Below, one piece after another: positions 2,797-8,114 of a DNA stretch of 50,942 bases. Numbering within the stretch: position 1 is the first letter of the stretch; each line of letters opens with the position of its first letter. This DNA comes from an uncultured Thermoplasmata archaeon (GTDB taxonomy: Archaea; Thermoplasmatota; Thermoplasmata; Halarchaeoplasmatales; Halarchaeoplasmataceae): contig CAYNQI010000005.1 of the NCBI GenBank assembly GCA_964399335.1, positions 1 through 50,942 of the forward strand, read 5' to 3'. The translations under genes were made by a program, and so were the position numbers. The notes below the pieces were generated by a model, which searched no databases, was not told where the DNA came from, and was given only the letters and a program-made list of their open reading frames with translations.

Positions 2797-3492
2797 TTAT
2801 GACTTAGGTTTAGGATATCCTAAGGAGAGGTATTTATCCGCTGCTTCTTTGCAGTTTCTGCTTTCCCATACTCTTTCTATATCGGGGTTTAAAAGTAGAT
2901 TTTTAATTTCTTCAACCAGTCTTTTTAAATTACAAGAAAAACTCCAGTTTTCTATATAATCTATTTTAATCTCTCCTCCCTTTTTAGGTAATTTTATATT
3001 AGGATGGAATATATCGGTTTCCCATCTTATTTTTGGACGGAAATATGGATATGATCTAGGGATTTTCAATTCAAAAATATGCTGGAATGATAAAGCGATA
3101 TTGGAACCGATCTTTACTGGTCCGGGTGTATTAATAACTTTAAAAGTACATGAAAATGATTCATCGTCAAAATGTTCCTCTATAACTTCTACATCATTTT
3201 CCTTTATTATATCCATTTCATTTTTCAATCGAGATTCCCAGATTTGCTTGGGTAGGCGTATATCTTTATTTTTCCTTTCAATCAGCACAAAATCTCCTTC
3301 TTTGATATCTGTCCTTGACCATTTTTGATCCAAGCACAATTCAGATCCATTATACAATATTTTAATTTCCTCTTCAATATCCCAGTATGAAATGATTCCA
3401 GAGATACTTTCGATAATTTTTTCTGTAGGATCAATCCTTATTGAGATTCTGCTTCCCTCTCCTTGTTTTCCTATCTCGATATCAAAGGACAT
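2797..3492 (-). CDS. Ubiquitin-like (beta-grasp) domain fused to a UBC/E2-fold domain, with the catalytic Cys position occupied by Lys (UEV-like)
   Basis: aa 1-74 align by eye with ubiquitin (ISIRIDPTEKI...ILYNGSEL...DIKEGDFVLI). aa ~80-222 carry the E2 hallmarks YPYFRPKIRWETDIFHPNI, GEIKIDYI..W and LLLNPD. Confidence 0.82.
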   Translation of the reverse strand: MSFDIEIGKQGEGSRISIRIDPTEKIIESISGIISYWDIEEEIKILYNGSELCLDQKWSRTDIKEGDFVLIERKNKDIRLPKQIWESRLKNEMDIIKENDVEVIEEHFDDESFSCTFKVINTPGPVKIGSNIALSFQHIFELKIPRSYPYFRPKIRWETDIFHPNIKLPKKGGEIKIDYIENWSFSCNLKRLVEEIKNLLLNPDIERVWESRNCKEAADKYLSLGYPKPKS

Positions 3493-3512
3493 AGATTCGG
3501 TTATTGGTAATC

Positions 3513-3528
3513 ATTTATATTGTTTTTT
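3513..3528 (-). promoter_or_regulatory. BRE/TATA-like promoter for a probably leaderless Ubl-E2 transcript
   Basis: The minus strand reads AAAAAACA-ATATAAAT about 21 nt upstream of the ATG at 3492. Confidence 0.5.
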
Positions 3529-3728
3529 GTCTTTCTTAATCTTTAATTTGAACTTTTGATCTAGATTTAAGAAAGTTCTAAATATCAACAATCTCCAATA
3601 TCTTGTTTCCGAAAAGTATAAATCACCATAAACCGGTTGGAAAACCCCGACAATAGAAAGGTTTTTGAAGTGAATTCGCTTATAGAATTAATGAGGAATC
3701 AACCTTCGGATTGCGGAGATGAAATATC

Positions 3729-6700
3729 TTGGCTGGAAAATATCTAAAAGCAAGACAACTCGCAAAAGAGATTGAAAAAAAGGCAAAAAAAACTGCCGAG
3801 AAAAAGAAAAAAGCTAAAGAGGGTTTAGAACAGGCAGAGGAGTTGCTGGACACATCTGAAGATTTAGGTATAGATATATCTGAAGTTGATGGAATTATTA
3901 AGGATGCTCGTGAAGATTTTGAAGATAAGAAATTTGAAGAATCCTCTAAAAAAATAAATCAATGTTTAGATGGTTTACAAGAAATTTATTCTGAAAAATT
4001 AGATGAAATGATAGAGGATATCAAGGACCTTCATGATTATTTAGATCTAGAAATAGAAGAAACTGATTATGAGGAAATGTTAAATGAAGCAAATAAACTT
4101 TTTGACCAGGGTAAGTATAAAGAGTCTATTATTAAAACTGATGAAATTTTTACATACGTGAAAAAAGATGTTGAAGAGCTTTATGAAGATTGGTTATATG
4201 AAATTGAATCTAAAATAGAAACGTTAAGAACTTTAAATGGTGATATTAATAAATTTGAACAAAGTATATCTTCTGCCGAGGATTTATTGGACGAATTTGA
4301 AATTGAAAAAGGAAAGCAAGCTTTAGATTCATTAGAAGATGAGATTAACCGAGAATTAAAAAATATTGTTACCGGAAAGATTGAGGAAATCGAAAAGATT
4401 GAGGAATTATTGCGTAAAAATGGTATATCTACTAAAGATGTTGAGGAAACAATTAGCGAAATTAAGGCAAAAAATAAAAAAAATGAGTATGCTGAAATAG
4501 TCAATCTTTTTGGAAAAATCGAAAGAGAGCTCAGTGATAGGAAAGATGAGTTAGTATCCAAAATGGTTAAAAAATTAAGAGATGAGATTGAAAAGGCTAG
4601 AGAACTTGGAGCGCCTCAAAGTAAGATAAAAAGCATAAATGAAAAAATAAATGAACTACAAGAAATAGAAAATTTTGGTAATATCATTAATCTGATTGAT
4701 GAACTTTTTGAGAAGGTAGAAGAAGCTAAATTTCATAAAGTTTTGAAGACAATTGCAGAGTCTAGGGAGAATTTTATTAAAGCAAAGGAGATCGGGATCG
4801 ATATTACTGAACCTATGGATATTCTGAATAAGGCAAGAACTTCTTTGAAAGAAGGAAATCATAGAGAAGCTTTGGACTGGGCTAAAAAAGGAAGAAAAAA
4901 AGTTCGGGATATGGTAAAGGAACATGAAAAAACAGAAAATGAATTAGAAAAAATTAAAGAAATAACGGAAGGTTTGAATGAATTCGAACTAGATTTATCT
5001 TTTGTTGATGATAGAATTGAAAAAGCTGAAGAATATCTTGAACAAAAAGAATATTCTAAATCTAGAGAAATATTAGAAGAAATTGAAAGTGATATAGATG
5101 AAAAAGCTTATGAAAAAATTATGGAATTTGTCGAAGAATTTGAGGTAAATATATTGACTTTAGAAAGGATGGGTTTAGATAGCGGTGAATATACAGAGAT
5201 GCTTGAAGAGGCTATCGCTAATACCAAAACCATGGATTATATTGAGGCCGGTAAAATAGCTTTGAAAGGTAAAAATCAAATTTTAGAGAAAATTAAAAAA
5301 GAGATCGATTTTAAAATAGAAACTGTTTCCAGATTAGCAGATAATATAAAAGAATCGATAGATTCTGAAGACATTGAAGATGAATTAAAAAACGTAGAAA
5401 ATCTAATTGACAAGGCATTAAAAGAAAAAGACAAATCCAATTATAAAACATCCTATGATAAACTTCAAGAAGCAGAAGAGACGGTAAATGAGTGGCAAGT
5501 AGGAGAAGCTGATCAAAAGTATAATGAAGCAAAGGAAACTTTAGAATTAGTCGAAGATATAGACTTTGAGGGTATAGATATAGATGATTATCTGACCAGA
5601 TTAGAAGACGCTAAATTGGATATAGAGGGTAAAAATTATCCAGAGGCAATCCAAAAGATCGATGAAATACTTGATGATTTAAATGTTAAATTAAAAAAGA
5701 AATCAGAAGAGTTCTTTACGAATGCAAAAGTCGAGGTTGTGAAGGCAAAAAAGTCTGGTGTGGATATAAATAAGATGAGAGAGGAACTAATTGAATGTAA
5801 AAAAAATATAAAACAAGAAAATTTTACTAAGGCTATTAGTTTATCTGTAAATGTTGAAAAAAGAGCTAAAAAAGTTATAGGCGAACGTTCTGAAACTAAA
5901 AAACTCATCTCAGATCTAAATGAGACTGTAAGAAAATTAAGAGAATCAGATGATTTACAAAATTTAAAACCAGCTATAAAGTTACTCAAAGAAGCTAAAA
6001 GCAGTTTTCAACAGAGAAATTATGTTGAATCCAAAGAACTAGCAAACAAGACTAAGATGAAACTAGATGAGTTGAAAATGAAAAATGAATTTGAGACTTA
6101 TCACGATAACTATAAAAAGTTATTAAAAAGAGCTGATATAATCTCTGTAGATACTGAAGACATTCAAGATGAAGTCAATACAATTTTAAATAAAGCAGAT
6201 GGAAATGATTATAGTTCTGCAATAGAAATGATTCAAGAAATAAATGATGAATTATTAAATAAAATTAAAGATTCTGTAGAACCGAGGATAAATCATACTC
6301 AAGAAATTATAGAATCTGCTAAAGAAATTGGAATAGATATATCTTCCCAAGAAGTATTACTAAGCAAAGCTAAAGAAAATTTTGAAAATAATGAATTCAA
6401 GGCCGCCGTAGAGAAAATAAATGAATGTCAAAATGAGATCCAAGAGATTAGAGACCAAAGTAAAAAGGCCGCCCGGAGTGTGAAGAAGGCAAAAAATAGG
6501 TTAGAAGAAGCTATGGATATTCATGCAGATATATCAACTGCTAGAAAAGAATTACAAGTTTCTATGGAAGCAATAAAAAATGATGAATATGAAAAAGCAA
6601 TTGATACTGCTGAAAAAGCATTGAGCAGTATTCGATTAGCTGAGAGGAATAGAGTTGAAAAAATATTGTCTACATTTAAAGAAAAGATTAATGAGATGAG

Positions 6701-8114
6701 GGTAGATGGAGTAAACACATCATTTGCTGATAATTTAATAGCACGTGCTGAAAAAGCCAAGAAAAATGAAAATTATAAGGAAGCAATAAATCTAGCTATG
6801 CAAAGTGAAGGTGAGCTAGAAAGGATTGAGTTACAGCAAGATATTGCGAAAAGAAGTATCTCTACAACTACAAATAAATTGTCTAAGGCAAAAAACGAGG
6901 GAATGAATATTGAAAAACCAGAAAAGATTTTAAAAGAAGCAAAAAAAGCATATGATGGTGGTTTTTATGTCAAAGCTTTTGATAAAGCAGTAAAAGCTGG
7001 TGAGATACTAAATAATATAATTAAAGCTTATACAGAATCTAAAAGCATTTTAGATGATATCGAACAAGTATTAGATAAGTTAAAAGTTCTTGGTATGGAA
7101 GAAATTGAACTTATGGATAAATATTCAAAAGCTGTTGATGCATTTGAAAATGATAATTATGAAAAATCATATTCTTTAGCCAATAGGGCTAAAGAAACAT
7201 TAAGTAACGTCAAAAAAGAATTGCCAGACCAGATTTCAGACATGGAAGATGTTATCGATGATCTAAAATCAAAGAGAGATGTTGGTAAGTCTGAAAAGTT
7301 ATTGAACAAAGCTAAGGCTAATTTAAAAATGGGCAATATTTTAGAGGTTTTTGATCTTCTAGCTAAAGCTAAAGAGGAGTATGGTGGGAAATATTTCGAA
7401 GAGTATGAACAATTCATCGGGGAAGCATCAAAATTAGTTAAGAAAGCAAATAAATTTGGAACCGACGTTAGTGAGGCTAAAGAAATTATAAATGAGGCAA
7501 GAGGTTTAAGAGATGAAAATATCAAAAAAGCTAGTTTGAGGGCTAAAGAAGCTTTAGTTGAGATTGAGAAAATACTTGCACCTTACAGCCCTAATATTGA
7601 GGTAGAGATGAACGATAAACTTAGACTTGATACGTGGAATAAAGTGAATATGTCTGTAAAAAACACAGGCGGAGGAGTTGCTAAATCACCATCTATAAAA
7701 ATAAAAGGTGCAAAGAATAAAGATATAGAATTACCCTCTATGTTAAAAGCAAACGAAAGTTTTGAAACTGAAACAAAAATTAAACCTACTGAGGATAAAG
7801 TGATTATTGAAGGAGTTGGGACAAGAATTTTTGATAATAAAGATATATCATACCAATTAGAGATTGAAGTTACTGAAAGTAATTTTAAAATAATTGATGC
7901 AACCGGAAATGAAAAATGTGGTATATGTAAAGGTGAAATTAAAAAAGGTTTAGACGTTATTATTTGTGATTGTGAATCACCATATCATAAGTTGTGTGGT
8001 GAAAGAAAGGGTGAATGTCCAGAATGCGGGCTAGATTTTACCTTAGATGAGGAAGAAAAGAAGGAAGAGAAGGGAGGCAAAAAAGCCTCTAAAAGAGTAG
8101 CCCTTCGGATCTGA
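3729..8114 (+). CDS. Giant helical-repeat/coiled-coil protein with a C-terminal Ig-like (CARDB-type) domain and a prokaryotic RING-type zinc finger
   Basis: TTG start. About 1280 aa of E/K-rich repeats (A...G.D......L..A...), then a beta-rich segment (SVKNTGGGVAK), then C-x2-C-x12-C-x-C-x4-H-x2-C-x6-C-x2-C at 7917-8027. Confidence 0.78.
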   Translation: MAGKYLKARQLAKEIEKKAKKTAEKKKKAKEGLEQAEELLDTSEDLGIDISEVDGIIKDAREDFEDKKFEESSKKINQCLDGLQEIYSEKLDEMIEDIKDLHDYLDLEIEETDYEEMLNEANKLFDQGKYKESIIKTDEIFTYVKKDVEELYEDWLYEIESKIETLRTLNGDINKFEQSISSAEDLLDEFEIEKGKQALDSLEDEINRELKNIVTGKIEEIEKIEELLRKNGISTKDVEETISEIKAKNKKNEYAEIVNLFGKIERELSDRKDELVSKMVKKLRDEIEKARELGAPQSKIKSINEKINELQEIENFGNIINLIDELFEKVEEAKFHKVLKTIAESRENFIKAKEIGIDITEPMDILNKARTSLKEGNHREALDWAKKGRKKVRDMVKEHEKTENELEKIKEITEGLNEFELDLSFVDDRIEKAEEYLEQKEYSKSREILEEIESDIDEKAYEKIMEFVEEFEVNILTLERMGLDSGEYTEMLEEAIANTKTMDYIEAGKIALKGKNQILEKIKKEIDFKIETVSRLADNIKESIDSEDIEDELKNVENLIDKALKEKDKSNYKTSYDKLQEAEETVNEWQVGEADQKYNEAKETLELVEDIDFEGIDIDDYLTRLEDAKLDIEGKNYPEAIQKIDEILDDLNVKLKKKSEEFFTNAKVEVVKAKKSGVDINKMREELIECKKNIKQENFTKAISLSVNVEKRAKKVIGERSETKKLISDLNETVRKLRESDDLQNLKPAIKLLKEAKSSFQQRNYVESKELANKTKMKLDELKMKNEFETYHDNYKKLLKRADIISVDTEDIQDEVNTILNKADGNDYSSAIEMIQEINDELLNKIKDSVEPRINHTQEIIESAKEIGIDISSQEVLLSKAKENFENNEFKAAVEKINECQNEIQEIRDQSKKAARSVKKAKNRLEEAMDIHADISTARKELQVSMEAIKNDEYEKAIDTAEKALSSIRLAERNRVEKILSTFKEKINEMRVDGVNTSFADNLIARAEKAKKNENYKEAINLAMQSEGELERIELQQDIAKRSISTTTNKLSKAKNEGMNIEKPEKILKEAKKAYDGGFYVKAFDKAVKAGEILNNIIKAYTESKSILDDIEQVLDKLKVLGMEEIELMDKYSKAVDAFENDNYEKSYSLANRAKETLSNVKKELPDQISDMEDVIDDLKSKRDVGKSEKLLNKAKANLKMGNILEVFDLLAKAKEEYGGKYFEEYEQFIGEASKLVKKANKFGTDVSEAKEIINEARGLRDENIKKASLRAKEALVEIEKILAPYSPNIEVEMNDKLRLDTWNKVNMSVKNTGGGVAKSPSIKIKGAKNKDIELPSMLKANESFETETKIKPTEDKVIIEGVGTRIFDNKDISYQLEIEVTESNFKIIDATGNEKCGICKGEIKKGLDVIICDCESPYHKLCGERKGECPECGLDFTLDEEEKKEEKGGKKASKRVALRI

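Follow-up and report, generated by a model that had tools for sequence, protein, structure and literature searches.

The window studied here is a stretch of 50,942 nucleotides from an uncultured Thermoplasmata archaeon (contig CAYNQI010000005.1), and the gene in question encodes a 231-amino-acid (aa) protein in which a ubiquitin-like (Ubl) domain is joined to the fold of a ubiquitin-conjugating enzyme (E2) that has no catalytic cysteine. The protein, referred to below as the pseudo-E2, is very probably a catalytically inactive Ubl-E2 fusion that resembles the ubiquitin E2 variants (UEVs), with an incidental lysine, Lys176 (K176), at its former catalytic position. Its gene is divergent from that of a giant RING protein, and the relation between the two is considered after the evidence on the pseudo-E2 itself.

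A ubiquitin-like domain fused to an E2 fold

Two lines of comparison place the 231-aa protein in the UBC/E2 superfamily. The Pfam model UQ_con (PF00179) matched residues 139-217 with an E-value of 5.1e-13 and 49.3 bits against a cut-off of 27, and an AlphaFold model built with 26 homologues (predicted local distance difference test (pLDDT) 92.2; predicted template-modelling score (pTM) 0.68) placed an E2 fold after an N-terminal beta-beta-alpha-beta-beta domain. Foldseek matched this model to UBE2K, UBE2D, Ubc13 and UBE2S with template-modelling (TM) scores of about 0.65-0.70, normalised to the target. The Pfam model for UEVs (PF05743) was not matched (E 0.11, 12.8 bits against a cut-off of 27). 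When the protein was compared with the sequences of the Protein Data Bank (PDB) using phmmer, GGEIKIDYIENW, which lies within the longer FHPNIKLPKKGGEIKIDYIENW, was aligned to the E2 2pwq; H163-P164-N165 then coincides with the HPN motif, and K176 with the catalytic Cys. A sequence-only reading of this DNA had described an E2 fold with an intact HPN, no Cys and K176 in the Cys column; the Pfam match, the alignment to 2pwq and the model all agree with that description.

The N-terminal domain is a Ubl beta-grasp, as judged from its secondary structure and from its relation to a family of free Ubl proteins described below. DSSP assigned to the model strands at residues 3-9 and 15-20, a helix at 26-36 and strands at 43-47 and 68-73. 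Among Pfam models, Rad60-SLD matched residues 12-69 weakly, with an E-value of 0.0019 that is below the cut-off. The end of the domain, ...GDFVLIERKNKDIR, passes straight into the LPKQIW of E2 helix 1 without a Gly-Gly, and no member of the fused clade has an exposed or releasable Gly-Gly at this point. The claim of the sequence-only reading that the fused Ubl is non-conjugatable therefore holds. That reading had also raised the idea that the protein mimics a permanently loaded Ubl~E2, on which the evidence bears neither way; the fusion attaches the Ubl to the N-terminus of the E2 and not to its active site.

Relatives were collected by word-indexed and exhaustive HMMER searches, and full-length ones were found only in Thermoplasmatota genomes assembled from metagenomes. 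These full-length orthologues are 27-61% identical to the pseudo-E2, and the named genomes among them are those of Candidatus Saliniplasma and Haladaptatiplasma, of the order Halarchaeoplasmatales. In a maximum-likelihood tree of the E2 domains, 28 Cys-less sequences from halophilic Thermoplasmata formed one clade with a Shimodaira-Hasegawa-like approximate likelihood ratio (SH-aLRT) support of 92. The sister of this clade (SH-aLRT 98) was a clade of stand-alone E2s that have the Cys in every sequence. The 68 stand-alone E2s, of ~168 aa, come from Methanomassiliicoccales and other Thermoplasmata and carry the motif GG[YFH]VC[TI]KLL with 100% Cys. Their genes are mostly flanked by genes for a ThiF-type activating enzyme (E1) and a JAB peptidase, whereas the genes of the fused clade are not.

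Directly upstream of the stand-alone E2s is a gene for a ~79-aa protein that ends in ELIPDPEGG plus zero to two residues, as in a classical Gly-Gly Ubl. Members of this free Ubl family match the Pfam models ubiquitin, YukD and Rad60-SLD weakly. Comparison of the fused Ubl with the free family by hhalign gave a probability of 98% and an E-value of 1.7e-13, with an alignment that stops just short of the PEGG tail. More distant fusions (P0030, P0052, P0064, P0067, P0071 and P0143) retain both the Gly-Gly at the junction and the Cys, and one of them, P0052 (locus L006), sits in a row of JAB, ThiF and Ubl-E2 genes. Collectively, these sequence relationships show that the 231-aa protein is the product of a Ubl-E2 gene fusion that later lost the Gly-Gly and the catalytic Cys. 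Adjacent Ubl (Gly-Gly) and E2 (Cys) genes of an E1/Ubl/E2/JAB operon became joined in a single lineage of halophilic, Halarchaeoplasmatales-like Thermoplasmata. The Ubl has lost its Gly-Gly and the E2 its catalytic Cys together with the PNPxxP motif of loop 8; the dedicated E1 and the Rpn11-type JAB peptidase are no longer found.

Another arrangement of Ubl domains was seen in genera without a pseudo-E2. At two loci (L087:5044-6004 and L089:4861-5821), a tandem pair of proteins of about 150-170 aa combines a related N-terminal Ubl, with a 'YW' motif, and an unrelated C-terminal domain of ~70 aa ('AE+WL..NIG'). The pair adjoins an open reading frame (ORF) of ~730 aa and an amidohydrolase-like gene.

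The catalytic column and the conserved residues

The forward strand reads TTT at positions 2965-2967, giving the codon AAA for K176, which differs from TGT and TGC at all three bases. The sequence-only reading had considered a sequencing slip unlikely at this codon, and rightly so, because all 28 members of the clade are without the catalytic Cys that an active E2 carries a few residues past the HPN. The identity of the residue is another matter. Conservation of Lys among homologues was the comparison that the same reading had proposed, and Lys was found in only 5 of 26 orthologues, in a column of ten residue types (five Lys, six Arg, three His, four Ser, two Asn, two Trp and one each of Glu, Asp, Gly and Tyr); over all 28 members of the clade there are about eleven. 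With an entropy of 3.0 bits, this is the 17th most variable of the 153 columns of the E2 domain; the HPN columns and W183 have zero entropy. The six nearest proteins (46-61% identity) have Trp, Ser, Ser, Trp, Lys and Arg at this position, those at 57-61% identity having Trp, Ser, Trp, Lys and Arg, and the Lys residues are scattered over at least four separate tips of the tree. From these comparisons, a single loss of the catalytic Cys preceded free drift of the site within the clade, and Lys176 is simply its current occupant.

The sequence-only reading had seen in K176 a natural Cys-to-Lys isopeptide trap, or a site modified by a small archaeal modifier protein (SAMP). Here K176 would accept a SAMP or other Ubl from an E1 through a stable isopeptide bond, leaving a permanently loaded E2-Ubl. 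K176 does align with the catalytic Cys, the best PDB matches include engineered Cys-to-Lys E2-ubiquitin conjugates, and the genome encodes two ThiS/MoaD-type Ubls ending in Gly-Gly, one UbaA/MoeB-type E1 and a small JAMM peptidase. However, just 5 of 26-28 orthologues have Lys, scattered over the tree, and the closest relatives of the window protein have Trp, Ser or Arg; the PDB matches stem from the Lys at that column and not from a shared function, and the loop-8 residues that support catalysis have decayed. Lys is not selectively maintained, the sequence comparison leaves the natural Cys-to-Lys E2 not supported, and a Lys trap is highly improbable. The top PDB matches, UBE2K C92K and UBE2L3 C86K, rank first because they share the Lys at this column, not a function, and could mislead a quick annotation.

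In five fused proteins of one subclade (L014, L016, L019, P0011 and P0018), a Cys follows one position after the catalytic column, which itself holds Ser or His ('GGNVSCTYI'). This +1 column is otherwise hydrophobic (Ile, Met, Leu or Phe), so we read the Cys as a probable conservative replacement at a buried hydrophobic position.

Conservation was compared between 16 fused and 68 stand-alone sequences. N204 and P208 of the loop-8 PNPxxP never vary among the stand-alone E2s (100% conserved) but do so among the fused proteins; the motif corresponds to the N114/D117 loop next to the UBE2D active site, and in its place the window protein has P-D-I-E-R-V. Of the hallmarks of an active E2 it thus has the HPN and lacks both the catalytic Cys and the PNPxxP. 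Constraint has also relaxed in the fused clade at D171, M167, S187, G195 and E197, which together with N204 and P208 are 87-100% conserved in the active clade. About 100% conserved in both clades are L80-P81, R88, N91 and E92 in helix 1, H138, Y148-P149-x3-P153 in loop 4, W157, I161, the HPN, G172-G173, W183-x-F185 in loop 7, P203, C214 and A217. E2s bind E1s and RING proteins through helix 1, loop 4 and loop 7, and the same features are labelled in the paper on the Caldiarchaeum system (PMC5654768). With the catalytic surroundings decayed and the docking surfaces preserved, the pattern of conservation fits that of a pseudoenzyme that most probably acts through binding.

The loss of the catalytic residue and the Gly-Gly, and the absence of the gene from three genera of the order, would also be expected of a decaying gene without function. 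The frame, however, has stayed intact in at least 28 lineages (27-61% identity), 15 columns are invariant and the structure model is of high confidence, and we regard decay of this kind as hardly credible.

The 231-aa protein has cysteines at positions 53, 115, 187 and 214. The sequence-only reading had named C187 as the only Cys downstream of K176, which is mistaken, since C214 lies downstream as well. C187 is unconserved; C214 is kept in 25 of 26 fused orthologues and is the sole Cys in 10 of the 26, in proteins in which Cys makes up only 0.8% of residues. An equivalent of C214 is present in 66 of the 68 stand-alone active relatives. Mapped by sequence onto helix 3 of UBE2L3 and UBE2D, its position is ambiguous by 3-4 residues. 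Conservation this strict calls for a specific role, be it structural, redox or that of an additional thiol close to the cleft. A third Cys is also conserved in the active clade (87% of the 68 stand-alone E2s, loci L020-L086), in helix 1 at the position of I96, where the fused clade has Leu.

In the window's genome (1.57 Mb, 80% complete), the only UQ_con match is the pseudo-E2 gene itself. A single ThiF match was found, a 334-aa MoeB/UbaA-like E1 beside a PP-loop ThiI-like gene, along with one small Prok-JAB (JAMM) and two ThiS/MoaD-type proteins of 85 and 63 aa that end in Gly-Gly; the JAB family PF01398 was not found in this 80%-complete genome. As candidates for a cognate E1 and Gly-Gly Ubl of the pseudo-E2, it therefore offers one MoeB/UbaA-type ThiF protein and two SAMP-like proteins, and no operon E1 or JAB. 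Five further genomes of the fused clade (G001-G005) have one UQ_con match each and no PF01398 JAB, an absence that is qualified by their incompleteness. A MoeB-type ThiF protein occurs once in each of four of the five, G002 having given none. A search of G001, G002, G003 and G005 for small Prok-JABs yielded one per genome. On these incomplete genomes, the organisms of the fused clade seem to have an ordinary SAMP-type set without the dedicated E1 and JAB of the sister operons.

These components and C214 together bear on the possibility that the protein is still an enzyme, in which C214 would be the nucleophile, a SAMP-type Ubl its cargo and the giant RING protein the ligase (E3) that selects the targets. 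Consistent with this are the retention of C214 in 25 of 26 fused proteins despite the rarity of Cys, its position as the only Cys in ten of them, the invariance of the HPN, H138 and the E1- and E3-docking elements, and the SAMP-like Ubls and UbaA-type E1 of the genome. But C214 is equally conserved (66 of 68) where the canonical Cys remains, and since the two coexist in active enzymes, C214 did not arise as a substitute once the canonical Cys was lost; moreover, the cognate E1, Gly-Gly Ubl and JAB of the sister operons were not found in these incomplete genomes and loop 8 has decayed. An enzyme of this kind is improbable. In a fuller version, which is if anything a little less probable still, C214 would join the intact HPN in a relocated active site, the UbaA-type E1 would load this site with a SAMP-type Ubl, and the giant Prok-RING would be the E3. 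If true, this would be a true E1-E2-E3 cascade for SAMPs in a euryarchaeal-type archaeon; to our knowledge, the SAMP system has so far been considered E2-independent.

The giant RING protein and the barrel beside the pseudo-E2

The features of the window, together with the SAMP-type genes of the rest of the genome, are listed in the table below.

Table. Positions and strands of the pseudo-E2 gene, its parts and its neighbours, and of the SAMP-type genes of the same genome
Feature	Positions	Strand	Basis or remark
Ubl-pseudo-E2 fusion gene	2797..3492	-	231 aa, ATG start, stop codon 2797-2799; ORF list and translation
Ubl beta-grasp domain, residues 1-75, without C-terminal Gly-Gly	3268..3492	-	DSSP, hhalign
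UBC/E2-fold domain, residues 80-231, without catalytic Cys	2800..3255	-	Pfam UQ_con, PDB E2 matches, Foldseek
HPN codons, H163-P164-N165	2998..3006	-	invariant in 26/26 fused and 68/68 stand-alone relatives
K176 codon AAA, catalytic-Cys column	2965..2967	-	alignment to PDB E2s
C214 codon	2851..2853	-	first turn of helix 3 (DSSP helix 212-224)
Stand-alone double-psi beta-barrel (Cdc48/p97 N-domain type), 93 aa	2470..2751	-	45 bp downstream of the pseudo-E2 gene, same strand
Divergent intergenic region, pseudo-E2 gene to giant RING gene	3493..3728		236 bp; ORF coordinates
Helical/coiled-coil Prok-RING protein, 1461 aa, candidate partner	3729..8114	+	Pfam PF14446
RING-type finger, C-x2-C-x12-C-x-C-x4-H-x2-C-x6-C-x2-C	7917..8027	+	pattern scan
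SAMP-type set of the window's genome (G000)	C3:5168-5398, C6:38717-38887, C61:1869-2567, C98:103-264	-, +, -, +	two Gly-Gly Ubls, E1, JAMM

The divergent neighbour of the pseudo-E2 gene encodes a protein with about 1280 aa of helical repeats, followed by a beta-rich segment, a Prok-RING_1 finger and a basic tail. It belongs to the Prok-RING_1 family (PF14446), which it matched with 30.5 bits against a cut-off of 29.1. The eight zinc ligands of the finger are invariant in 10 orthologues, and past the finger the RING orthologues (L005, L007-L010, L012, L014, L015 and L018) share an invariant basic tail, KKASKRVAL[KR]I. Orthologues of the giant RING protein, about 1450-1485 aa long, occur in 40 of the 43 genomes of the order, and of the 11 fused-clade loci that extend far enough upstream, 10 have the pseudo-E2 and RING genes head-to-head. 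The same RING pattern was found near active E2s at one of 69 loci. At one locus of an active E2 (L074:185-6799), an 1827-aa protein with the same C4HC3 finger is encoded in a row with the Cys-bearing E2 and a JAB peptidase, all on the same strand and only 6 and 15 bp apart, which shows that this E2 family does associate with RING proteins of such a type. Genomes of the order also carry up to five further proteins of 850-1500 aa with the same type of RING.

Because the docking elements are conserved and the RING adjacency is specific to the fused clade, we tentatively propose, as the likeliest of the readings considered, that the pseudo-E2 is a fixed E2-Ubl unit that docks on the RING protein encoded beside it, a role that we consider quite possible although somewhat short of probable. 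The pseudo-E2 would bind the giant RING protein without transferring a Ubl, as an adaptor, a regulator or a structural subunit, and the fixed Ubl would serve as a recognition handle. Prediction of a complex between the E2 domain (residues 76-231) and the RING finger gave no verdict (score 0.00) and speaks neither for nor against binding.

On its other side, the pseudo-E2 gene is followed by that of a small protein with the fold of the Nn subdomain of Cdc48/p97. The Pfam model CDC48_N matched the protein with an E-value of 2e-7 and 31.5 bits, below its cut-off of 35.1, and its AlphaFold model (pLDDT 89.8) was matched by Foldseek to the N domains of p97/CDC48 and to an Aeropyrum VCP-like double-psi beta-barrel with TM scores of 0.82-0.86 and root-mean-square deviations of 1.0-1.6 Å. 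Barrel proteins occur in 41 of the 43 genomes. A second family of small barrel paralogues is also present in the order, and in the window's genome the N-terminus of a 744-aa ORF, presumably the Cdc48/VAT ATPase of the organism, weakly matches the barrel profile (C1:22629-22913, minus strand).

The barrel opens another possibility, that the pseudo-E2 is non-catalytic and has nothing to do with the RING protein, acting instead as a reader of SAMP- or Ubl-modified proteins, or as a Ubl adaptor for Cdc48/VAT or for the 93-aa barrel. The barrel gene, its fold confirmed by Foldseek, lies within 0-1.5 kb downstream of the pseudo-E2 in 15 of 16 loci, the genome has the 744-aa Cdc48/VAT-like ORF, and 24 genomes have kept the RING protein but have no pseudo-E2; eukaryotic p97 N domains, according to the titles of PDB entries, bind UBX/Ubl beta-grasp domains. 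On the other hand, the barrel is present in the 41 genomes regardless of the pseudo-E2, with no specific co-occurrence, and a stand-alone barrel is only half of a p97 N domain, in which UBX is bound between the two halves. We consider a binding role of this other kind rather unlikely.

Several observations also weigh against the proposed docking of the pseudo-E2 on the RING protein. Full-length pseudo-E2s were found in 19 of the 43 genomes (genera g1, g2 and g4-g8) as against 40 with the giant RING protein, and genera g3, g9 and g10 keep the RING and barrel proteins without a pseudo-E2, which means that the RING protein is not dependent on the pseudo-E2. Across the 43 genomes of the order, the pseudo-E2 shows no specific phyletic co-occurrence with either the RING or the barrel, because both are nearly universal there. 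All fused-clade loci come from this one order, and the genes for QueH, eIF2-alpha and TrkA/TrkH are syntenic too, so the conserved adjacency to the RING gene is partly plain synteny. In two genomes (G006, locus L011, and G023) the pseudo-E2 gene is sited away from the RING gene. Finally, a pure binding role does not explain the strict retention of C214 and the HPN. Since the RING and barrel proteins are widespread without it, the pseudo-E2 is an accessory element and not an obligatory partner of the RING protein.

The surroundings of these genes vary among genera. In one genus (L091:4105-6492, which is the same place as L011), the pseudo-E2 has no RING gene beside it and is divergent from a Ras/Roc-family small GTPase, which is followed by a DUF835 protein. 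Genus g9 has the RING gene in the same place with unrelated ORFs of 216 and 226 aa opposite; that these might be degenerate copies of the pseudo-E2 was ruled out by hhalign (probability <1%). In genus g3, the barrel gene directly faces the RING gene.

Comparison with known systems

The fused family offers a clean natural example of a ubiquitin-type conjugation module turning non-catalytic. The Gly-Gly, catalytic Cys and loop-8 motif have been lost, and the E1 and deubiquitinase have apparently gone as well; kept are the docking surfaces, the HPN and the association with a RING gene. The active type from which it came is still present in sister lineages, so the steps of loss are directly comparable. 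Discussion of UEV-type pseudo-E2s has centred on eukaryotes and Asgard archaea, and the present family is of independent origin in Thermoplasmata. The analysis also draws attention to giant coiled-coil RING proteins as a family that is widespread among these halophiles. A literature search found no description of the fused pseudo-E2 or of ubiquitin systems in Halarchaeoplasmatales; most subscription-journal papers were outside that search, and a prior mention is possible.

The UEVs and E2 variants of eukaryotes and Asgard archaea (Mms2/Uev1, the UEV domain of Tsg101/Vps23, AKTIP/Ft1 and Drosophila Peo) share the Cys-less UBC fold and act by binding and not by thioester chemistry, as is proposed for the pseudo-E2. 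Mms2 and Tsg101 are not known to have an HPN. In Peo, an Asp occupies the Cys site and HPH replaces HPN (PMC4481407), and Asgard UEVs are mentioned in PMC10936438. Unlike these proteins, the window protein has an intact HPN, keeps both C-terminal E2 helices and carries a fused N-terminal Ubl without Gly-Gly; it also differs in its Thermoplasmata host, in having no active E2 found to pair with and in its giant Prok-RING neighbour. It is a UEV only if the term is taken broadly, for any UBC fold without the Cys.

Engineered Cys-to-Lys E2-ubiquitin conjugates (UBE2K C92K, 6jb6 and 6jb7; UBE2L3 C86K) have Lys at the catalytic column, as the window protein does at K176. In contrast to these constructs, the natural family shows no selection for Lys, and the resemblance is a coincidence of one orthologue.

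The E1/E2/RING/Rpn11 operon of Caldiarchaeum subterraneum (PMC5654768) and the E1/Ubl/E2/JAB operons of Thermoplasmatota encode E2s with the same family features: the invariant Arg of helix 1, the HPN, loop 4, the W-x-[PF]-[AS] of loop 7 and the Pro of loop 8. The operon E2 of the sister clade is the direct ancestor type of the window protein, which differs from the proteins of these operons in lacking the catalytic Cys, the Gly-Gly and a neighbouring E1 or JAB. The RING protein encoded beside it has 1461 aa and is not a small RING finger protein. Closest in architecture are the Ubl-E2 fusions of JAB/E1 operons, such as P0052 at L006, with the same N-terminal Ubl and C-terminal E2. These fusions keep the Cys and a junction Gly-Gly ('DPVGGA') from which the JAB peptidase could release the Ubl. 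In the window protein both the Gly-Gly and the Cys have been lost, so the fusion of its Ubl is permanent.

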